In this document: positions 49,996-63,173 of the stretch, one piece after another | How the letters are laid out: every line of letters begins with the position of its first letter | Position numbering within the stretch: the first letter of the stretch is position 1 | Assembly (NCBI GenBank): GCA_963708085.1 | Contig: OY970180.1 | Span: 792,565-856,564, forward strand | From: an uncultured Actinomycetota bacterium | GTDB lineage: Bacteria > Actinomycetota > Thermoleophilia > Solirubrobacterales > Solirubrobacteraceae | Length of the DNA stretch: 64,000 nucleotides | Direction of reading: 5' to 3' | Position numbers and translations under genes: made by a program | The notes under the pieces: generated by a model | Database searches by the model: none | The model's input: the letters and a program-made list of their open reading frames with translations, nothing else | Told to the model about the DNA's origin: nothing

Positions 49996-50096
49996 TGGCG
50001 CGGTCCTGTGGCCGTGCAACCGTCCGGGCGGAGCTTTTTTGAACGATCAAAAATATGATATGGTCACCCAATCTTTGTCTGAATACCGGAGGTGAT

Positions 50097-51278
50097 ATGC
50101 CCGCCGCTGTCGTTCACGAGCTCTATGACCCGCTGTACCACACGATGCAGGAGGATCTCTACGAGATCTACCGGCAGCTGCGGGACGAGCATCCCGTCTA
50201 TCACTGCAAGCACCGTGAGGTGTGGTGTCTGACGCGCTTTGACGACGTGCAGGCAGCGGCGCGCGACTGGGAGACGTTCTCGAATGCCAACGGCGTCGAG
50301 CTGGACGTTCCAACGCAGTTCTACGGAACAGGCAACTTTCTCGAGGAAGATCCGCCCCGGCACGACCTGCTGCGCAAGGTGGTTCGCCCCTTCTTCATAC
50401 CGAAGGCGATCGCACGGCTGGAAGGCCAAGTGGAACGGCGCGTGGAGGAGATGATCGCTCAGCTGCTCGATGCGGATCGGATCGATATCGCCCAGGACTT
50501 CGCCTGGGCGCTGCCAGTGTGGGTGATATGCCGGCTGCTCGGTGTGCCAGAGGCAGACGACGAGCACGTGCACGACCTGGTTACCGAATTGGAAACGCGG
50601 TGCCCCGGTGACGATGGGCACGCCGAGCATGTGGGCCCGATCCTGCGCAGGTTTCATGAATACTCAGAAGATCTCGCCGAGCGGAAGCGGCGCATGCCAG
50701 GCGATGACCTGATGTCGCACCTGGTTGCGGGCGAGGCTGAGCAGGCGCCACGCCGCGACGAGCTGCTTGGCTTGATGGTGCTGCTCTTCACCGCCGGCAG
50801 CGAGACGACGGCGGCGTTGATCGGCAATACGCTGAGCTTCCTGGCCGAGCACCCTGACGCTCAGCAGGCGTTGCGGCAGCGGCCGGCTGAGCTGATCGAC
50901 GCAACTATCGAGGAGTCGCTGCGGATGGACACGCCGGTCCAATACCTCGCGCGCCGCGCCACCCGGCCGGTTCTCCTCCACGACGAGGAGATCCCCGCGG
51001 GCGCCGATGTGATTCTGATCTACGGTGCGGCGAATCGCGATGAGCGCCACTTCGAGCGCGCAGAAGCTTTCGACATACACCGCCCTGCGCAGCGGCACCT
51101 CGCCTTTGGCGAGGGAATCCACTTCTGCCTGGGCGCGCCGCTTGCACGTCTGGAGGCCCGTCTGGCGGTGCCAGCGTTCATACGCGCATTTCCCTCCTAC
51201 CGGCTCGAGTCCAGGACGGAGCGGTTCTTCAACCACATAGTGCGGGGCTATCAGCATCTGCCCGCGACGATCGGCTGA
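50097..51278 (+). CDS. Cytochrome P450 monooxygenase (paralog 1)
   Basis: AGSETTA (I-helix), ESLR (ExxR), and heme loop FGEGIHFCLGAPLARLE. GGAGGTGATATG start context. Confidence 0.92.
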   Translation: MPAAVVHELYDPLYHTMQEDLYEIYRQLRDEHPVYHCKHREVWCLTRFDDVQAAARDWETFSNANGVELDVPTQFYGTGNFLEEDPPRHDLLRKVVRPFFIPKAIARLEGQVERRVEEMIAQLLDADRIDIAQDFAWALPVWVICRLLGVPEADDEHVHDLVTELETRCPGDDGHAEHVGPILRRFHEYSEDLAERKRRMPGDDLMSHLVAGEAEQAPRRDELLGLMVLLFTAGSETTAALIGNTLSFLAEHPDAQQALRQRPAELIDATIEESLRMDTPVQYLARRATRPVLLHDEEIPAGADVILIYGAANRDERHFERAEAFDIHRPAQRHLAFGEGIHFCLGAPLARLEARLAVPAFIRAFPSYRLESRTERFFNHIVRGYQHLPATIG

Positions 51279-51533
51279 CACCAATCCCGCCGCCGGGGTT
51301 GCATCGAGGTTGACCGAGCAGCGCCGTCGATCACGCCGGCGCTGCGGCGCCCATCGATGCGCCTGATCGGGCGGGCATTGCTGCACGCCCGATCGCGACG
51401 TTGCGCAAGCCACACGAGAGCCTGCTTGGAGCCCGCTGGCACAGGTGGAGGGAACCTCCGCCATATGGTACGGTGACTCGATCTCTTTGAGGTGTGTTTC
51501 CCTCTGTTACACCATGCCAACCCTGGAGGTGAT

Positions 51534-52715
51534 ATGCCCGCCGTCACAGCTCCCGAGCTCTACGATCCGCTCTACCACACCCCGCAGGACGATCTCTATG
51601 AGATCTACCGGCGCATGCGGGACGATCACCCCGTCTATCACAGCGAGCGTCGCGACGTGTGGTGCCTCACGCGCTTCGATGACGTGCAGGTGGCGGCGCG
51701 CGACTGGGAGACTTTCTCCAACGCCAATGGCGTAGACCTCGACGTGCCGGCGCGGTTCTTCGGCGTCGGGAACTTCATCGAGGAAGACCCGCCGCGGCAC
51801 GACGTGCTGCGCAAGGTCGTGCGCCCCTTCTTCGTGCCGAAGGAGATTGCGAAGCTCGAAGGCCAGATAGCGGAGCGCGTCGAGCAGCTGGTCGCAGGGT
51901 TGGCAGGGGCCGGGCGGATCGACATCGCGCAGGATTTCGCCTGGGCGTTGCCGATCTGGGCGATATGCAGGCTGATCGGCGTGCCACAGGCCGACGACGA
52001 GCTTGTGCACGGCCTCGTCACGAAGCTGGAAACGCGTCGTCCCGGCGACGATGCGCCTTCGGAGTCGATGCTCTCAGCGCTGCGCGAGCTTCGATCCTAT
52101 GCGGAGGATCTTGCCGAGCAGAAGCGGCGGGCGCCGGGCGAGGATCTGATGTCCCATCTCGTCGCCGGCGAGGCCGACGGCGCGCCACGGCGCGAGGAGA
52201 TCCCGGGCATGATCGTGCTGCTGTTCGCCGCCGGCAGCGAGACGACTGCGTCGCTGCTTGGCAACACGCTCTCGCTGCTGGCAGAGCACCGTGAGGCCCA
52301 GGAGGCGCTGCGGCGCGAGCCCGCCGAGCTGATCGACGCTGTGATCGAGGAGTCGCTGCGGATGGACCTGCCGGTCCAGTACCTGGCGCGTCAGACGACC
52401 ACCTCCGCGCGCGTCCATGACGTCGAGATTCCCGAGGGCGCCGACCTCTTGTTGATCTACGGCGCCGCCAATCGCGACGAGCGGCACTTCGAGCGCGCGG
52501 AAACGTTCGATATCAGGCGGCCGTCGCAGCGGCATCTGGCCTTCGGCGAGGGCATCCACTTCTGCCTCGGCGCTCCGCTGGCGCGCTTGGAGGCGCGCAT
52601 CGCGTTGCCGGCGTTCCTGCGCGCCATCCCGTCCTACGAGATCGAGGCGCCGGTCGAGCGGTTCTCCAACCACACCATACGCGGCTTCATGCACCTGCCC
52701 GCCAAGGTCGGCTGA
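51534..52715 (+). CDS. Cytochrome P450 monooxygenase (paralog 2, tandem duplicate)
   Basis: Same motifs as paralog 1 (AGSETTA, ESLR, FGEGIHFCLGAPLARLE). Collinear along the whole length, roughly three quarters identical by eye. Identical GGAGGTGATATGCCCGCC start context. Confidence 0.92.
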   Translation: MPAVTAPELYDPLYHTPQDDLYEIYRRMRDDHPVYHSERRDVWCLTRFDDVQVAARDWETFSNANGVDLDVPARFFGVGNFIEEDPPRHDVLRKVVRPFFVPKEIAKLEGQIAERVEQLVAGLAGAGRIDIAQDFAWALPIWAICRLIGVPQADDELVHGLVTKLETRRPGDDAPSESMLSALRELRSYAEDLAEQKRRAPGEDLMSHLVAGEADGAPRREEIPGMIVLLFAAGSETTASLLGNTLSLLAEHREAQEALRREPAELIDAVIEESLRMDLPVQYLARQTTTSARVHDVEIPEGADLLLIYGAANRDERHFERAETFDIRRPSQRHLAFGEGIHFCLGAPLARLEARIALPAFLRAIPSYEIEAPVERFSNHTIRGFMHLPAKVG

Positions 52716-53536: not shown

Positions 53537-53550
53537 CGAACAACTGTTCC
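53537..53550 (+). promoter_or_regulatory. LexA-binding SOS (Cheo-type) box upstream of recA
   Basis: CGAACAACTGTTCC matches the Gram-positive/actinobacterial consensus CGAAC-N4-GTTC. It lies 54 nt upstream of the recA ATG. Confidence 0.75.
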
Positions 53551-53603: not shown

Positions 53604-54719
53604 ATGCCCGTCACCGACCAGGACCAGGAGAAGGCAGCAAAGGCGCGCGACGCGGCGCTGAAGGGCGCGCTTGGCCAGATCGAGCGCGAGTTCGGCAAGG
53701 GCTCGGTGATGCGGATGGGCGACGAGGGCGCGCAGGTGCGTGTCGACGCGATCCCCACCGGAGCGCTCGCCCTGGACATCGCGCTCGGCATTGGCGGCGT
53801 GCCCAAGGGACGCATCGTCGAGGTCTTCGGCCCGGAGTCCTCCGGCAAGACGACCCTGATCTATCACGTGCTCGCCGAAGCCCAGCGGCTCGGCGGCGTG
53901 TGCGCCTTCATCGATGCCGAGCACGCGATGGACCCGCTCTACGCCAAGACGATTGGCGTAGACATCGACGAGCTGCTGGTCTCTCAGCCTGACTACGGCG
54001 AGCAGGCCCTGGAGATTGCCGACATGCTCGTGCGCTCCGGCGCCGTGGATGTGGTGGCGATCGACTCGGTCGCGGCGCTCACCCCCAAGGTAGAGCTGGA
54101 GGGCCAGATGGGTGACCAGACGGTTGGCGCCCAGGCGCGGATGATGTCCCAGGCGATGCGCAAGCTCGCCGGCAACCTCAACCGGACCAGCACGCTCTGC
54201 ATTCTCACCAACCAGATCCGCGAAAAGGTGGGCGTGATGTTCGGCTCGCCGGAGACCCAGCCGGGCGGCCGCGCGCTGAAGTTCTACGCCTCCCAGCGTC
54301 TGGACATCCGCCGCATCGAGACGCTCAAGGACGGCACCGAGGCGGTCGGCAACCGGGTGCGGGTGAAGGTCGTCAAGAACAAGCTCGCCGCCCCCTTCAG
54401 GCAGGCCGAGTTCGACATCGAGTTCGGCCGTGGCATCTCGACCTCCGGCTGCCTGATCGACCTCGGCATCGAAGAGAACATCGTCACCAAGTCCGGCTCC
54501 TTCTTCTCCTACGGCGAGGAAAGGCTCGGCCAGGGTCGCAACAACGCCAAGGCGTTCCTGGACGAGCACCCGGAAATAGCCATGCAGGTCGAGGCCAAGA
54601 TCTACGCCGCGCTCGGCATAGGCGCCGATAAGGTCACGCCAATCGAGCGCCCGCCGGCCCAGGACGCTGTGCAGGCGGTAGAGGCATCCGCGCCGGCTGC
54701 CGTGCAGCGGGCGGCCTAA
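53604..54719 (+). CDS. recA: Recombinase RecA (no intein)
   Basis: [24 protein letters not shown] Walker [18 protein letters not shown], and [28 protein letters not shown]. Confidence 0.97.
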
Positions 54720-57682: not shown

Positions 57683-58432
57683 CTAGTGCTGACCGCCCGG
57701 TTCTCTCGTAGGCATGCTCTGCTGCACGGTTGCGCCACTTGCTGTAGTGATTTCTGCGGTCTGCGCTTGTCGGTTTCCCGGCCAGTCAGCCGCGAACCAC
57801 CCGTTTGAGACCGTCGCCTGAACACGACTGCCGTCTTCGAGTACGAGCGTAACGGCAGTTACGTTTGTGCCGACGCGGCCAGCGTTGAAGTCGAATTCGG
57901 CGATCGGGGACGTTTTCGTGAGCACGGAGCCCGTATCCGTTCTTCGGATCGCGTCAGAGGCCATAGGAGCGGTGGGCGATATGCCGCCGTCACGGAAAGG
58001 CGCAAACGGTGGTTCCCCTGTAGGGCTATTAAACGAGGGGCCCGTGACGCACAGTCCGACCCCGGAAGCATCCGTGTATACAAGCAGCGTGTACGGCCCT
58101 CGCGTGTCCACTACGGCAGGTGCCCGCGATGTCAGCGCTGAGTTACGCTGACATTCGGATTCTGCGGTCCGTACCTGGCCGCTTGCAGCTGGTGTCGGCT
58201 TCGCGCTCCATCCTGCGAACGCGTTCGGTGTATCGCCGCCCGCAAAGATGACTGCCGCCGCGGCAGCTGCTGCGACAGCGCCGCCCGCACACATCGCCCG
58301 CAAGATCAAGCGCTGTGGTACCCGGGTGCCCTGCGCATGATTTCGTGAAAGGCGGGCAGCCGCCTCGGAGGGCACCTCTGCCGCGTGCCGCGCGAACATC
58401 TCTCGCAGGTCAGTCTCGATATTATCTGTCAT
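57683..58432 (-). CDS. Membrane-anchored anti-sigma factor (putative)
   Basis: The start ATG overlaps the ECF sigma stop (ATGA). A short cytoplasmic N terminus, a single Ala-rich TM helix (AMCAGGAVAAAAAAAVIFAG), and an extracytoplasmic domain of about 180 aa. The position and topology are typical of ECF partners. Confidence 0.7.
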   Translation of the reverse strand: MTDNIETDLREMFARHAAEVPSEAAARLSRNHAQGTRVPQRLILRAMCAGGAVAAAAAAAVIFAGGDTPNAFAGWSAKPTPAASGQVRTAESECQRNSALTSRAPAVVDTRGPYTLLVYTDASGVGLCVTGPSFNSPTGEPPFAPFRDGGISPTAPMASDAIRRTDTGSVLTKTSPIAEFDFNAGRVGTNVTAVTLVLEDGSRVQATVSNGWFAADWPGNRQAQTAEITTASGATVQQSMPTREPGGQH

Positions 58433-59028
58433 CGGCTTCTGCTCCTTAGCTGATTCCCGATACTTATAGATTGGGGAGCGCGCGGATCCTCCTCCGCTGA
58501 TGACTGCAGCGCTTCGCGGAGACGCACGAGACTGCGAGAGGTCGTACTCTTGACGGTCCCGACAGAGCAACCAAGCATCTCTGCGACCTGTGCCTCGGAG
58601 AAGTCTCCGAAGTAGCGCAACACCAAGATCACTCTCTGGCGAGTCGGCAGCGCACGCACAGCGTCACGCAAATCCCCGTCAGCGGTAGGCAGCGTCGTCA
58701 CGTCATCCGTTCGATCGTCGCCACGAAACGCGAGCTTGGCCTCAGAGGGCCCATCCAGTCTCAGAAGCTCTTGCCAGCGCCGAGCGCGCCGCTGTCCGCC
58801 GTCGAGCGCCAGGTTCACGAGCACTCGCCGGGCATATGCACCAGGATGATGCATCACGCGTATATGTCGCCAACGCTCCGCGACGCGCAAAAAGCATTCC
58901 TGCGTCAAGTCTTCGGCCTCTGGCAGATCAGAGGTGATCAGGTAGGCAGTCCTAAGCAAGTCGTCGCCGTAGCTTGCAACGAATTGCTCGAACTCGATCC
59001 GAGTCCGGTCTTCGTGCCGTGACTCCAC
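58429..59028 (-). CDS. ECF-type RNA polymerase sigma-70 family factor
   Basis: Region 2 (LLRTAYLITSDLPEAEDLTQECFLRV...YARRVLVN) and region 4 HTH (RQRVILVLRYFGDFSEAQVAEMLGCSVGTVKSTTSRSLVRLRE). Confidence 0.9.
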   Translation of the reverse strand: MESRHEDRTRIEFEQFVASYGDDLLRTAYLITSDLPEAEDLTQECFLRVAERWRHIRVMHHPGAYARRVLVNLALDGGQRRARRWQELLRLDGPSEAKLAFRGDDRTDDVTTLPTADGDLRDAVRALPTRQRVILVLRYFGDFSEAQVAEMLGCSVGTVKSTTSRSLVRLREALQSSAEEDPRAPQSISIGNQLRSRSR

Positions 59029-59730: not shown

Positions 59731-61056
59731 GTGAAGTCTTTCCATCTCACCACCTTCGGCTGCCAGATGAACGAGCACGACTCCGAGCGGATGAAGGGCA
59801 TGCTGCAGTCGCTCGGCTACAGCGAGGCGCCAGAGCGTGAGCAGGCGGATCTGATCCTCTTCAACACCTGCTCGATCAGGGAGACCGCCGATAGCCGCTT
59901 CGTGGCGCACCTCGGCCAGGCCAAGCGCTTGAAGCGTGAAGACCCCGAGCGGATCGTGGGCGTCGGTGGCTGCTGGGCGCAGTCGGTCAAGGAGGAGGTC
60001 TTCGAGCGCTTCCCCTTCGTCGACGTCGCCTTCGGCCCAGGCCAGGTGCACAAGCTGGCGGAGTTCCTGACCAGCGACTCGCTGACCGCGCAGGGCTACT
60101 TCGAGTTCGAGGGCTTCACCGGCAGCCTGCCCGCGCATCGCGAGCGGCCCTTCCAGGGATGGCTTCAGATCAGCGTTGGCTGCAACTGCCGGTGCTCCTA
60201 TTGCATCGTGCCGAGCACCCGCGGACTGGAGGTCTCAAGGCCCTTCGCCGAGCTCGTGGCCGAGGCGCAATCGATGGCCGCAGAGGGCGTCAAGGAGGTG
60301 ACGCTGCTCGGCCAGAACGTCAACTCCTACGGCCGCGACCTGCGCGCAGACGGCGGGCCACGCAGCTTCGCGGAACTGCTGACGGCGATCGATGCCGTGG
60401 AGGGGATCGAGCGCGTCCGCTACACGAGCCCGCATCCCAAGGACATGCGTGAGGACGTGATCCGCGCGCACGCGGAGCTGGCAAGCCTCTGCGAGCACAT
60501 CCACCTGCCGCTGCAGTCGGGCTCCAGCAGGGTCCTGAAGGCGATGCGGCGCACCTACACCCGCGAGCGCTACCTCGACCGGGTCGCGATGATCAGAGAG
60601 CACGTGCCGGACGTCGCGCTCTCCACCGACATCATCGTCGGGTTCCCAGGCGAGACCGAGGCGGACTTCCAGCAGACGCTCGAGGTCGTCGAGCAGGTCG
60701 GCTACGACAGCGCCTTCACGTTCATCTTCTCGCCGCGTCGCGGCACCGAGGCGGCGCAGATGACCGCTGAAGCAGTGCCACACCCCGAGAAGGTCAGGCG
60801 GCTGGAAGCACTGGTGCAGGTCGTCCAGCGGCAAGCCCAGCAGCGGGCGGCGCGCTTCGTCGGGCGCACAGTCGAGGTGCTGGTCGAAGGTCCCTCGCGC
60901 ACCGATCCGGAGAAGCTGCGGGGTCGCACGCGCCATAACAAGGTCGTCAACTTCTCTGGCCTGGCTTCGCCCGGCGAGATGGCAGAGGTGGAGATCGCCT
61001 CGGCTACGAGCCAGACGCTTGCCGGCGATGAACGTCTGCTGGCGCGTCTGGGCTGA
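59731..61056 (+). CDS. miaB: tRNA-2-methylthio-N6-dimethylallyladenosine synthase MiaB
   Basis: UPF0004 domain (TFGCQMNEHDSE), radical SAM CNCRCSYCIVP, and a C-terminal TRAM domain. Confidence 0.94.
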   Translation: MKSFHLTTFGCQMNEHDSERMKGMLQSLGYSEAPEREQADLILFNTCSIRETADSRFVAHLGQAKRLKREDPERIVGVGGCWAQSVKEEVFERFPFVDVAFGPGQVHKLAEFLTSDSLTAQGYFEFEGFTGSLPAHRERPFQGWLQISVGCNCRCSYCIVPSTRGLEVSRPFAELVAEAQSMAAEGVKEVTLLGQNVNSYGRDLRADGGPRSFAELLTAIDAVEGIERVRYTSPHPKDMREDVIRAHAELASLCEHIHLPLQSGSSRVLKAMRRTYTRERYLDRVAMIREHVPDVALSTDIIVGFPGETEADFQQTLEVVEQVGYDSAFTFIFSPRRGTEAAQMTAEAVPHPEKVRRLEALVQVVQRQAQQRAARFVGRTVEVLVEGPSRTDPEKLRGRTRHNKVVNFSGLASPGEMAEVEIASATSQTLAGDERLLARLG

Positions 61057-61093
61057 TCGGGCCAAAAGCATGTGTGGACCGCCGGAACGTGTG

Positions 61094-61107
61094 CGAACAT
61101 ATGTTCG
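61094..61107 (+). promoter_or_regulatory. Perfect palindromic LexA SOS box on the start codon of the radical SAM gene
   Basis: CGAACATATGTTCG is the exact Cheo-box palindrome. The candidate ATG start (61101) is the centre of the box, and the candidate GTG start (61107) begins at its last base. Confidence 0.75.
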
Positions 61108-63173
61108 TGCGCTGGAGCAACCTCACCCTCGATGGCACCGACCAAAGGCGCCTGCCGGGATATTGCGATGAGGCGGTCGTGCGCCACTTCGATGCGCCGG
61201 AGGCGCTGCAAACGCGCTTCTACGAGGTCCGTGCTCGCTCGATCCTCAATCGTGTACCGGCGGCATCGCGGATGCCGTTTGGCTGGACAATCAATCCGTA
61301 TCGTGGCTGCAGCCATGCATGTGCATACTGCCTGGGGCCTGATACGCGAGTGCTCTGCGCGGACGGTCGATCCGCGCGCATCGCGGATCTCGAGGTAGGT
61401 GATGCGATCTATGGAACTGTGCGGCGAGGCGCCTACCGGAGGTTCGTCACTACACACGTCCTGGACAAGTGGTCCAGCATCAAGCCTGCCTACGAAGTGC
61501 AGCTAGAGGACGGGACCACGATCCTCGCAAGCGAGGATCACCGTTTCCTGACTGACAGAGGATGGAAGCACGTCCTCGGTGCTGAATGGGGCCGCTTCCA
61601 ACGGCCGCACTTGACGCTGAACAACCGGCTGCTTGGTCCGGGTGGCGACTGCCCGCCCCCACCTATCGATGATGACTATCGGCGCGGATATCTGTGCGGG
61701 ATGATCCGGGGCGACGGCAATCTTGCCACCTATTCATATGAGAGGCCGGGTCGTGCGCACGGAGACGTGCACAGGTTTCGCCTTGCGCTCGCCGATCAGG
61801 AGGCTCTGCTGCGCTCATCGGGGTTCCTTTTTCATTTTGGCATCGGCACGAGAGAGTTCGTGTTCGCGGCGGCCGCGGGATCGCACCGCGCAATAGATGC
61901 CATTCGCACCCAGAAGAAGGCCGATGTCGAGCGGATACGGCGTATCGTCGCTTGGCCGGTGCTCCCGAGCCTGTCTTGGATTAAGGGCTTCCTCGCAGGG
62001 ATCTTCGACGCGGAGGGGTCTTGCTCTGCGCACGTGCTGCGCATCTCCAACACCGACACAGACATCGTCGCGTGGGTGAAGTCGTGCCTTGGCCGTCTCG
62101 GGTTCAGCTACGTGGTGGAGGCGCTCTCTAACCGCAACGGGCTGGTCAGCATCAGGGTCCGAGGGGGCCTGCACGAGCGTATGCGCTTCTTCCTGATGAC
62201 AGATCCCGCGATTACGCGCAAGCGCACGATTGAGGGGGCGGCATTGAAGACGACTGCGAAGCTGCAGGTCGCATCGATCCGTCCGCTCGGGATGACGATG
62301 CGCATGTACGACATCACGACCGGCACAGGTGACTTCATCGCAAACGGGGTGGTAAGCCACAACTGCTTCGCTCGCCCCACCCACAAATATTTGGACTTCG
62401 ACGCCGGCCGCGACTTCGAGCGCGAGATCGTCGTCAAGGTCAACGCGCCGGAGCTGTTGCGCGCCGAGCTTGCGCGCTCCTCATGGAAGGGCGAGCACGT
62501 CGCGCTCGGCACCAACACCGATCCGTATCAGTGGGTCGAGGGCCGCTACAGGCTGATGGAGGGGATCTGGGAGGCGATGCGAGATGCCGCCAACCCCTGC
62601 TCGGTGCTGACCAAGTCGCCGCTGCTGCTCAGGGACCTGCCGCTGATGCTCCAGATCGCGCAGCGCGCGCAGTTCAGCGCCAGCCTCTCCATTCCGACGC
62701 TCGACGAGAAGGCGTGGCGGGCGACCGAGCCGCATACGCCCAGCCCGCGAGCGCGGCTTGAGGCCGTCGCCGAGCTCAACCGGGCGGGCATCCCGACCGG
62801 CGTGCTGATCGCACCGCTGATGCCGGGCATAAACGATGCGCCGCATCAGGTGGAGCCCTTGCTGGAAGCCGCGATTGCTGCGGGCGCCACCAGCGTCGGC
62901 GGCATTGCGCTGCATCTGCGTGGCGAGGTGAAGGGCCTGTTCATGCAGTGGCTGAGCGAGCAACGCCCCGACTTGCTGGCGCGCTATGAGCAGTTGTACC
63001 GGCGTGGCGCCTATGCGCCGGTAGCGGAACGAAAGCGCCTTGCCGCGATGGTGAGGAGAGGTGCGCCGGGCCCCTTGCGCCGTATCTCCCTCTCGCGCGC
63101 CCGAGAGGATCATCCGGGGCCGGTGATCGAGCTGTGCGACGCGCCAGATCCGGTGCAGGAGCGTCTCTTTTGA
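61101..63173 (+). CDS. Rv2578c/SplB-like radical SAM protein (DNA-repair-photolyase-like family, COG1533-type) interrupted by an intein
   Basis: Exteins read ...TINPYRGCSHACAY | CFARPTHKYLDFDAGRDFEREIVVK...ALGTNTDPYQ...VLTKSPLLLRD...LSIPTLDE...GVLIAPLMPGIND. Splicing restores GCSHACAYCFAR, i.e. the CxxxCxxC cluster motif. Start options are GTG 61074, ATG 61101 and GTG 61107. Confidence 0.88.
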   Translation: MFVRWSNLTLDGTDQRRLPGYCDEAVVRHFDAPEALQTRFYEVRARSILNRVPAASRMPFGWTINPYRGCSHACAYCLGPDTRVLCADGRSARIADLEVGDAIYGTVRRGAYRRFVTTHVLDKWSSIKPAYEVQLEDGTTILASEDHRFLTDRGWKHVLGAEWGRFQRPHLTLNNRLLGPGGDCPPPPIDDDYRRGYLCGMIRGDGNLATYSYERPGRAHGDVHRFRLALADQEALLRSSGFLFHFGIGTREFVFAAAAGSHRAIDAIRTQKKADVERIRRIVAWPVLPSLSWIKGFLAGIFDAEGSCSAHVLRISNTDTDIVAWVKSCLGRLGFSYVVEALSNRNGLVSIRVRGGLHERMRFFLMTDPAITRKRTIEGAALKTTAKLQVASIRPLGMTMRMYDITTGTGDFIANGVVSHNCFARPTHKYLDFDAGRDFEREIVVKVNAPELLRAELARSSWKGEHVALGTNTDPYQWVEGRYRLMEGIWEAMRDAANPCSVLTKSPLLLRDLPLMLQIAQRAQFSASLSIPTLDEKAWRATEPHTPSPRARLEAVAELNRAGIPTGVLIAPLMPGINDAPHQVEPLLEAAIAAGATSVGGIALHLRGEVKGLFMQWLSEQRPDLLARYEQLYRRGAYAPVAERKRLAAMVRRGAPGPLRRISLSRAREDHPGPVIELCDAPDPVQERLF
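61329..62363 (+). mobile_element. Full-length intein (345 aa) with LAGLIDADG homing-endonuclease domain
   Basis: Begins with Cys1 (CLGPDTRVLCADG, block A). Block B is ILASEDHRFLT. Two LAGLIDADG motifs are present (YLCGMIRGDGN; FLAGIFDAEGS). Blocks F/G are MYDITTGTGDFIANGVVSHN, followed by the +1 Cys. The insertion is in frame and its length is a multiple of 3. Confidence 0.9.

Follow-up and report, generated by a model that had tools for sequence, protein, structure and literature searches.

The 345-residue insert in an Rv2578c-like radical SAM gene (COG1533, 'SplB') of a Solirubrobacteraceae bacterium is, with a probability of about 0.9, best explained as a canonical class-1 intein with a LAGLIDADG homing endonuclease (HEN). 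It would be a selfish mobile element that interrupts the gene, in frame, where the third cysteine ligand of the [4Fe-4S] cluster is encoded; an SOS-type box precedes the gene. This reading draws on the anatomy and predicted fold of the element, its exact site, its presence/absence polymorphism, the purifying selection acting on it and its distribution among taxa. The "window" below is the whole 64,000-nucleotide stretch of DNA that was analysed.

The intein, its host and its insertion site are already catalogued and are not new, a point that the original prediction had left uncertain: the site is recorded in the NCBIfam family NF038136, and the host appears as SplB/COG1533 in PMC4760082. As found, the window copy matters little in itself, being another instance of a catalogued and very common intein allele; inteins are, as a rule, situated at catalytic residues of conserved enzymes.

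Organization of the intein

The intein opens with CLGPDTRVL and closes with GVVSHN. It is preceded by GCSHACAY and followed by CFARPTH. Its parts are as follows.

61329-62363, plus strand: complete class-1 intein, Hint splicing domain with an inserted LAGLIDADG HEN; 345 aa, residues 86-430 of the open reading frame
61329-61367, plus strand: block A, CLGPDTRVLCADG; nucleophile Cys1 at 61329-61331
61512-61571, plus strand: block B, GTTILASEDHRFLTDRGWKH; TxxH motif present as S68-E-D-H71
61662-62198, plus strand: LAGLIDADG HEN domain, intein residues about 112-290, from LAGLIDADG_3, the I-DmoI fold match and the alignment
61689-61718, plus strand: LAGLIDADG motif 1, YLCGMIRGDG; putative catalytic Asp129
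61989-62018, plus strand: LAGLIDADG motif 2, FLAGIFDAEG; putative catalytic Glu229
62289-62363, plus strand: blocks F and G, GMTMRMYDITTGTGDFIANGVVSHN; block-F Asp328, penultimate His344, terminal Asn345

The Cys1, block-B histidine, two LAGLIDADG motifs, terminal His-Asn and Cys+1 named in the original prediction were all located, and both the family scans and the predicted fold agree with a LAGLIDADG intein. Block B has a serine in place of the usual threonine. Residues C1, S68, H71, D328, S343, H344 and N345 are invariant in an alignment of 20 intein sequences, and C1, S68, H71 and S343-H344-N345 are at least 98% conserved across all 122 inteins. The endonuclease motifs are nearly as constant: G124, R127, G128 and D129 of motif 1 are at least 90% conserved in the 20-sequence alignment, as are D227, A228, E229 and G230 of motif 2 in the intein alignments. 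The C-terminal junction reads HN|C in 72 of 82 representative junctions. The features of a class-1 intein are all present, namely Cys1, block B, the block F aspartate, His-Asn, Cys+1, an in-frame insertion that orthologues lack and a predicted Hint fold. Those of a two-motif LAGLIDADG endonuclease are present as well, in the form of two acidic-ended helices and a predicted alpha-beta-beta-alpha-beta-beta-alpha pseudo-dimer fold.

Family scans gave matches to intein and LAGLIDADG families. Pfam LAGLIDADG_3 scored 29.1 (cut-off 22.5), TIGR01443 intein_Cterm on the full protein 17.9 (cut-off 15.6) and TIGR01445 intein_Nterm 24.6, barely at its threshold of 24.5; Pfam Intein_splicing remained under its cut-off (25.2 vs 35.8). 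Sequence comparison of the intein with the PDB gave marginal matches only, the best having an E value of 0.006 (gp41-1 intein), and confirmation therefore needed a fold search. The AlphaFold model of the intein has a pLDDT of 81, and its top PDB fold matches are the HEN-containing inteins TliVMA, PI-PfuI, PhoVMA and PI-SceI (Foldseek E values of 1e-15 to 1e-11, probability 1.00). Upon superimposing the HEN domain of the model onto I-DmoI, the TM score was 0.74-0.78 and the rmsd about 3.3 Å.

The host gene

The host gene has the following parts.

61074-63173, plus strand: host open reading frame, 699 aa as listed
61094-61107, plus strand: candidate LexA/SOS-type box, CGAACATATGTTCG, overlapping the probable host start codon
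61107-61328, plus strand: N-extein of an Rv2578c-like radical SAM protein, ending in GCSHACAY; cluster cysteines Cys79 (61308-61310) and Cys83 (61320-61322)
62364-63173, plus strand: C-extein and stop codon, starting with CFARPTHKYLDF; Cys+1 at 62364-62366

The true start is probably the GTG at 61107, which gives 688 aa, because the database protein P0001 is 100% identical and 688 aa long and because the NCBIfam Rv2578c model begins at residue 12-13 of the reading frame in the family scan.

The host had been described as an Rv2578c/SplB-like radical SAM protein, and the families that score highest, far ahead of any others and with the full length aligned, are indeed NF038136 and NF038135, though the scores lie below the trusted cut-offs. 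NF038136 is the 'intein-containing Rv2578c family radical SAM protein' (rSAM_Rv_intein) and NF038135 is its intein-less counterpart. The window precursor scored 692 bits on NF038136 (E value 7e-208), missing the trusted cut-off of 700 by 8 bits, and the spliced product scored 407 bits on NF038135, below the cut-off of 430. A Micromonospora protein with the same intein (locus L049) scored 532 against that cut-off of 430. By these scores the window protein is a close, slightly sub-threshold relative that appears to belong to a divergent Solirubrobacterales branch. The NCBI record for the identical protein reads merely 'LAGLIDADG family homing endonuclease', and homologues carry the JGI label 'DNA repair photolyase'; both names conceal the nature of the protein.

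Removal of the intein in silico restores GCSHACAYCFARPTH, with C79-SHA-C83-AY-C86 in the spliced 354-aa product. As expected from the original prediction, this rebuilds CSHACAYC and gives a single contiguous match to Radical_SAM PF04055 (profile positions 1-157, 49.3 bits, cut-off 29.5); in the unspliced protein the match is restricted to profile positions 43-157. The placement of the insertion, such that Cys+1 is the third cysteine of CxxxCxxC, was likewise borne out by the junction sequence and by the same position in NF038136. Cys+1 is thus predicted to be both a splicing nucleophile and a cluster ligand. A sequence search of the PDB with the spliced extein gave no match at E values up to 1, and its predicted structure, calculated with 30 close homologues as input, had a pLDDT of 46.6, too poor for a fold search. 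'SplB-like' is accordingly a name given to the host by sequence family only. No experimental study, solved structure or known substrate of the host family was found in the searchable literature.

In the window, the candidate LexA box CGAACATATGTTCG forms a perfect palindrome. Its spacer is AT-rich, against a genome of 67% GC. Of 82 fetched loci, 50 have the pattern CGAAC-N4-GTTCG at this offset (235 nt before the intein), and the intein-free locus L081 is one of them. A scan around the gene start found no sigma-70 consensus promoter. The Rv2578c/Rv2579 region of M. tuberculosis has a LexA ChIP peak that is RecA-dependent (PMC3381160), and the host enzyme can probably be called LexA-controlled from Mycobacterium to Solirubrobacterales.

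Empty, full-length and mini alleles

Among 240 close homologues, 120 have an intein of 340-347 aa, 118 are intein-free and two have a mini-intein of 162-169 aa. All of these inteins interrupt the protein at one and the same junction. The intein-free orthologues are about 76-93% identical to the window protein in the extein and carry an uninterrupted GC.H.C.YC[FY]AR. The mini-inteins (P0139 and P0233) are clean HEN deletions, in which the missing segment corresponds exactly to the HEN domain at 61662-62198. The locus L081 is syntenic (miaB, radical SAM gene, SDR) and intein-free, with extein DNA 88% identical to that of the window; its intein-less junction reads TGCAGTCATGCATGTCTCTAC|TGCTACGCCAGGCCAACC. 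The closest orthologues of the window protein are also intein-free. The nearest other intein is 78% identical to the window copy, the donor of which is unsampled. With full-length, mini-intein and empty alleles that are 80-90% identical in the extein, the family offers a clean natural system for the homing cycle.

A relative of the intein is present at no fewer than 587 loci in genomes that each represent a species, and its position is unchanged in all 80 loci that were inspected. Chance can be discounted, since 120 close homologues and these 80 genome loci all have the insertion at one site.

Mobility, selection and spread

To account for the intein on the extein tree (240 sequences), at least 28 gain or loss events are needed, compared with about 80 when its presence is shuffled, and the window extein is nested among intein-free alleles. 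The Hint domain has dN/dS values of 0.07-0.14 and the C-extein of 0.05-0.17; those of the HEN, 0.12-0.27, indicate that it evolves under purifying selection. The GC content at third codon positions is 74.5% in the intein vs 81.4% in the extein.

Carriers include PA0069-family genes of Proteobacteria and Acidobacteriota, and, among cultivated organisms, Conexibacter stalactiti and Micromonospora lutea. Distant hosts resemble the window protein more closely in the intein than in the extein (55% vs 42% in Burkholderiales, for example), and within Solirubrobacterales the relation is reversed, suggesting horizontal spread. As to a vector of this cross-phylum spread, phage and plasmid collections gave only inteins of 25-29% identity and IMG/VR gave none. 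The sole phage match (Rctr197k, 'radical SAM protein-like') sits off any CxxxCxxC motif, and these collections gave no evidence for phage carriage.

The intein relatives collected number 2110. Other radical SAM families have relatives of 36-48% identity at the corresponding cluster cysteine, and 76 of 89 representative N-terminal junctions read CxxxCxx|C. The host families found are Rv2578c, PA0069, DUF5131/mobile-pair-A-like proteins, B12-binding radical SAM proteins and small SPASM/NrdG-like radical SAM proteins. The literature searched contained no paper describing this distribution across families.

Splicing, homing and alternative readings

The conserved residues suggest the following course of events. 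The precursor would be translated as a single chain. Cys1 would carry out an N-S acyl shift, the resulting thioester would be attacked by Cys+1, and Asn345 would cyclise with the assistance of His344. A subsequent S-N shift would yield an enzyme of about 343 aa with an intact CSHACAYC motif, together with the free intein. The free endonuclease, if active as its conserved motifs suggest, would bring about homing: it would cleave the conserved sequence coding for ...CAY|CFAR... in alleles that lack the intein, and the intein would be copied into the cut allele during repair. Splicing probably does occur, and the unspliced precursor is presumably catalytically inactive.

The same mobile intein might also act as a conditional switch, although we consider this unlikely; the original prediction had raised the idea that the redox or metal state of Cys+1 could gate splicing. 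In the precursor, Cys83 (position -3) is paired with Cys1 as a CxxC, and Cys79 and Cys+1 lie close by. The CxxC pair could form a disulfide or bind a metal or an Fe-S cluster, and thereby block the first step of splicing; the oxygen-labile, SOS-induced enzyme would then mature only in a reducing or Fe-S-replete cell. The original prediction had overlooked that a formal C-x3-C-x2-C exists in the precursor, where it is completed by Cys1 (CSHACAY-C1). Because Cys1 itself completes the motif, the geometry relevant to such a trap appears to be that of Cys-3 and Cys1, not Cys+1 alone. The C-x3-C-x2-C1 arrangement is present in the window sequence and in all 80 loci, but it arises automatically once an intein with Cys1 and Cys+1 enters a CxxxCxxC motif. 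A conditional switch would also be in keeping with the conserved candidate LexA box on the host gene, with the native Cys-3/Cys1 disulfide that blocks splicing of the Pyrococcus abyssi MoaA intein until it is reduced (Callahan 2011, as related in PMC3922620 and PMC10663303), and with the reported sensitivity of mycobacterial SufB and DnaB inteins to oxidative stress. On the other hand, the intein is dispensable, as seen from the intein-free closest orthologues and the many gains and losses; its HEN is under purifying selection; and forms without a HEN are just 2 of 122. These observations fit a homing element and not a domesticated regulator.

There is a broader form of this idea. One intein lineage might have become a specialist for the [4Fe-4S]-binding cysteine of CxxxCxxC in many radical SAM families that are otherwise unrelated, as an analogue of the P-loop hot spot of inteins, and in the SOS-box-controlled Rv2578c and PA0069 proteins the Cys-3/Cys1 pair might make splicing conditional on the redox or Fe-S state. 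The occurrence across families is observed directly, and the conditional splicing is conjecture; taken as a whole the proposal is doubtful. If true, maturation of an enzyme that is induced by DNA damage and is oxygen-labile would be confined to conditions under which the cluster survives. The motif-specialised spread and the possible Cys-3/Cys1 trap would then extend the concept of inteins as sensors to bacterial radical SAM enzymes.

Decay of the homing element into a non-splicing remnant, with the host gene a pseudogene, is very improbable. Two relatives do show damage, one having an intein with a frameshift and two stops (L036) and the other an N-terminal frameshift (L062), and the first motif cysteine is lost in a few representatives of the 50% clusters. 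The window reading frame, however, is intact with every splicing residue present and conserved, and the exteins of intein-bearing alleles have dN/dS values in the low range given above for the C-extein (0.05-0.17). A reading of the 345 aa as part of the mature enzyme, a structural or accessory domain specific to the lineage and not excised, might be drawn from the presence of the insert in all of the top 120 full-length homologues, but this is refuted by the 118 orthologues with an uninterrupted motif and by the syntenic intein-free locus, both of which uphold the earlier view of an insertion, as well as by the fold and motifs of the insert, which are those of an intein and a HEN, and by its occurrence in other radical SAM families. 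Bacterial intein-like (BIL) domains have no HEN and no +1 nucleophile context; this assignment was rejected, all class-1 features being present.

Comparison with known systems

The literature searched for inteins together with radical SAM, DUF5131 or Rv2578c gave no paper on this site, nor did it contain a splicing or endonuclease experiment on any member of the window intein's family. The closest catalogued relative is NF038136, in which the intein occupies model positions 76-334 and to which the window exteins align at 1-75 and 335-566; the window intein is longer, having 345 aa vs about 259 model positions. In Table 1 of the survey by Novikova et al. 2016 (Mol Biol Evol 33:783, PMC4760082), SplB/COG1533 ranks with the most frequent intein hosts of bacteria, 48 inteins being counted for it in Actinobacteria. 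These share COG and phylum with the window host, but the main text of that paper is silent on the insertion site and on its coincidence with the Fe-S ligand, and only Actinobacteria are listed.

PI-SceI, PI-PfuI, TliVMA, PhoVMA and I-DmoI share the fold and the two-domain architecture that are predicted for the window intein. These structurally characterised proteins are only 13-19% identical to it and the inteins reside in other hosts (VMA ATPase, RNR). With 345 aa the window intein is also smaller than PI-SceI and PI-PfuI (454-537 aa).

The M. tuberculosis SufB intein is likewise actinobacterial, belongs to the Fe-S field and is reported to be sensitive to oxidative stress. Its host, however, is a cluster-assembly scaffold and not a radical SAM protein, and its site is not a CxxxCxxC ligand.

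MoaA, for its part, belongs to the radical SAM enzymes. Its intein in P. abyssi resembles the window intein in having an oxygen-sensitive host and cysteines at position -3 and at Cys1, the C-x2-C1 spacing being that of the last two cysteines of CxxxCxxC. It differs in being archaeal and in belonging to another radical SAM family, and it is in that intein that redox control of splicing has been demonstrated (PMC3922620, PMC10663303).

Anatomy and fold of the intein

A single open reading frame of 699 residues (61074..63173, + strand) encodes both the Rv2578c/SplB-like radical SAM host protein and the insert, which is its middle 345 residues (61329-62363). The translation around the insert reads ...NPYRGCSHACAY / CLGPDTRVL...GVVSHN / CFARPTHKYLDF.... 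The original prediction placed a LAGLIDADG intein at this position, and its coordinates and every feature that it named were found in the sequence.

Features of the intein, from the translation
61329-61331, + strand: Cys1, the first intein residue
61512-61571, + strand: block B, GTTILASEDHRFLTDRGWKH, with TxxH present as SxxH
61689-61718, + strand: LAGLIDADG motif 1, YLCGMIRGDG
61989-62018, + strand: LAGLIDADG motif 2, FLAGIFDAEG
62289-62363, + strand: blocks F and G, last residues VVSHN
62364-62366, + strand: Cys+1, the first residue of the C-extein

Removing the insert in silico yields a 354-residue product bearing C79-x3-C83-x2-C86. This product has a contiguous match to Pfam Radical_SAM from profile position 1 (49.3 bits, cut-off 29.5), whereas in the unspliced protein the match begins only at position 43, in agreement with the claim that excision regenerates the cluster-binding motif.

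The insert matches Pfam LAGLIDADG_3 above threshold and NCBIfam intein_Nterm and intein_Cterm at or above their respective cut-offs. A PDB sequence search with the intein gave marginal matches only. However, an AlphaFold model built from a 20-intein alignment (mean pLDDT 81) has as its best PDB fold matches the endonuclease-containing inteins TliVMA, PI-PfuI, PhoVMA and PI-SceI (E 3e-15 to 1e-11), and I-DmoI superposes on the central domain of the model with a TM-score of 0.74-0.78. C1, S68, H71, D328, S343, H344 and N345 are invariant in the 20-sequence alignment, where the acidic LAGLIDADG residues D129 and E229 are at least 90% conserved; among all 122 related inteins C1, S68, H71 and S343-H344-N345 are at least 98% conserved. 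The insert is an intein carrying a homing endonuclease. For the host extein, a sequence search found no relative in the PDB, and our own structure model was too poor for use.

Intein-bearing and intein-free alleles

The full precursor as query retrieved 120 proteins of ~690 residues (70-79% identity, aside from the identical P0001), and the spliced extein 120 that are mostly 340-370 residues long (71-92% identity). The 240 pooled homologues were classed by junction. In 118 of them there is no insert and the motif GC.H.C.YC[FY]AR is unbroken. An insert of 340-347 residues occupies exactly the same junction in 119, and P0080, counted as a 120th, shares the N-junction. The remaining two (P0139 and P0233) have mini-inteins of 169 and 162 residues at the identical junction, formed by clean loss of residues ~112-290, i.e. 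the endonuclease domain. The locus of the intein-free homologue P0121 is syntenic with the window (recA ... miaB - rSAM - SDR - ... miaA - dapF); the two agree at 88% of extein DNA positions, and the P0121 junction reads ...TGTCTCTAC directly followed by TGCTACGCC.... The 345-residue segment is an insertion, polymorphic among homologues, and is dispensable.

Among intein-bearing homologues the mean identity is 85% for exteins and 71% for inteins. The window extein is nearest to intein-free alleles (up to 93%); no other intein in the sample exceeds 78% identity to that of the window. A neighbour-joining tree of all 240 exteins needs at least 28 gains or losses, versus about 80 after shuffling, and the nine nearest neighbours of the window (identical P0001 aside) are all without the intein. 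For unsaturated pairs, dN/dS ranges over 0.07-0.14 (splicing domain), 0.12-0.27 (endonuclease domain) and 0.05-0.17 (C-extein), so that all three parts are under selection and the endonuclease is maintained by it. The GC content of the intein (62.0%, GC3 74.5%) is below that of the extein (66.8%, GC3 81.4%). Taken together, the identity, tree, dN/dS and GC results fit an active homing cycle (invasion, fixation, endonuclease loss, precise loss) and not a domesticated domain.

Two fetched loci hold damaged copies. In L036 (3001-4034) the C-terminal part of the intein is broken by a frameshift and two stops, and in L062 (~3001) the frame shifts at the N-junction; either the alleles are decaying or the assemblies contain errors.

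Distribution across taxa and radical SAM families

When one genome for each GTDB species was scanned with the intein alignment, at least 587 loci proved to encode a relative, and the insertion junction is the same in all 80 loci fetched. Carriers are found in Solirubrobacterales, Thermoleophilaceae, Acidimicrobiales, Nitriliruptorales, Streptosporangiaceae, Micromonospora and Pseudonocardiaceae; others belong to Burkholderiales, Beta- and Gammaproteobacteria and Acidobacteriota. The spliced exteins of L074 (Burkholderiales) and L069 (Acidobacteriota) score above cut-off as PA0069-family proteins, and that of L049 (Micromonospora) as Rv2578c-family. Within Solirubrobacterales the extein (0.78-0.85) is better conserved than the intein (0.60-0.72). 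In distant hosts the order is reversed (e.g. 0.42-0.44 and 0.55-0.57, respectively), which speaks for horizontal movement of the intein from lineage to lineage, with the caveat that the loci had been selected for the best intein matches.

An exhaustive HMMER search with the intein over 1.84 billion cluster representatives found 2110 relatives (279 at E<=1e-30), of which 150 representatives were inspected. CxxxCxx directly precedes the intein in 76 of the 89 listed that include the N-junction, most of the remainder looking like frameshifted or truncated gene calls; the C-junction is HN/C in 72 of 82. Spliced in silico, the hosts whose inteins are 36-48% identical comprise mobile-pair-A-like proteins, a ParB_N-DUF5131 fusion, B12-binding radical SAM proteins (three), a small SPASM/NrdG-like radical SAM protein and several distant PA0069/Rv2578c-like proteins. 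Examples in other families with the intein at the same cluster-ligand Cys are P0263, P0278, P0297, P0306, P0312, P0313 and P0322. Because the spliced hosts span several families, the putative lineage is, judging from the 150 representatives, associated with the cluster-binding motif itself. A literature search found no paper on this spread across radical SAM families.

The B12-binding radical SAM protein P0309 (821 residues) has a related intein (residues 207-554, 37-38% identity) before the second Cys, GCPYR-intein-CNFC, which gives this cluster loop another insertion point besides the one at the third Cys.

Gene start and neighbouring genes

A perfect LexA-type palindrome, CGAACATATGTTCG, at 61094-61107 extends into what is probably the start codon of the host gene. 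In 50 of 82 related loci, spread over several actinobacterial orders, CGAAC-N4-GTTCG with an AT-rich spacer stands at an identical offset. In M. tuberculosis, Rv2578c/Rv2579 has a RecA-dependent LexA ChIP peak (PMC3381160). The host enzyme is apparently a member of the SOS regulon, in line with the known preference of inteins for replication and repair proteins (PMC4760082). Given the position of the box, the 11 additional codons at the start of the 699-residue frame (61074-61106, ..CEHMF) are probably translated operator. The GTG at 61074 probably lies 11 codons too far upstream; GTG 61107 is the start both in the NCBIfam model and in the identical 688-residue protein. The residues CEHMF, present in many gene calls, would likewise be a translated SOS box.

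Upstream (59731-61056, +) lies the gene for another radical SAM enzyme, a methylthiotransferase of the MiaB type, with an unbroken cluster motif, GCNCRCSYC; the stop codon of this gene is only 17-50 nt ahead of the start of the intein-bearing gene. recA, a classical actinobacterial intein host, is here without an intein (53604-54719, +, 371 residues) and has a one-mismatch box, CGAACAACTGTTCC, at 53537-53550, about 55 nt upstream. The recA...miaB-rSAM-SDR order is syntenic with the intein-free locus L081. The recA-miaB interval of the window holds an ECF-sigma/anti-sigma-like pair (58429-59028 and 57683-58570, minus strand), that of L081 VapBC/RHH-PIN toxin-antitoxin pairs instead. Judged by eye, two highly similar 407-residue paralogues lie in tandem at 50055-51278 and 51492-52715 (+), an apparent recent duplication, and both have a cytochrome-P450-like heme-ligand signature, FGEGIHFCLGAPLAR.

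Predicted splicing and comparison with known systems

"Intein-containing Rv2578c family radical SAM protein" is the name of the NCBIfam model NF038136. At 692 bits the window precursor is 8 bits under the cut-off of 700, with its intein at model positions 76-334 and its exteins at 1-75 and 335-566, so the insertion site is that of the catalogued model. The original identification is right, yet the element, whose host and site had been left unconfirmed as catalogued, is already in NCBIfam and widespread. Public names are misleading: NCBI has "LAGLIDADG family homing endonuclease" for P0001 and JGI "DNA repair photolyase" for homologues. The searchable literature contains no experimental study of any member of this intein family. 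What remains of interest is a family unstudied at the bench, its distribution across radical SAM motifs and a hypothetical Cys-3/Cys1 trap on an Fe-S ligand of an SOS-controlled enzyme.

By the established class-1 pathway, splicing would proceed through an N-S acyl shift at Cys1, trans-thioesterification onto Cys+1, cyclisation of Asn345 with the help of His344 and an S-N shift. We infer that the precursor, with 345 residues in its cluster loop, is catalytically inactive. The formal CxxxCxxC of the precursor is completed by Cys1 itself (CSHACAY-C1); a Cys83-Cys1 disulfide or metal binding could plausibly hold Cys1 and thus delay splicing.

MoaA, too, belongs to the radical SAM enzymes, and its cluster motif presumably fits the C-x2-C1 spacing of the Pyrococcus abyssi MoaA intein. 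According to two reviews (PMC3922620, PMC10663303), a native Cys-3/Cys1 disulfide in that intein stops splicing until it is reduced. Novikova et al. 2016 (PMC4760082) count SplB/COG1533 among the commonest intein hosts of bacteria, with 48 inteins in Actinobacteria; the insertion site is undescribed in their main text. Taken together, NF038136, Novikova et al. and the MoaA intein provide precedents for the host, the site and the idea of redox gating. The Cys-3 (Cys83 here) and Cys1 pair is common to the P. abyssi MoaA intein, where the disulfide is native, and the window precursor, where it is hypothetical.
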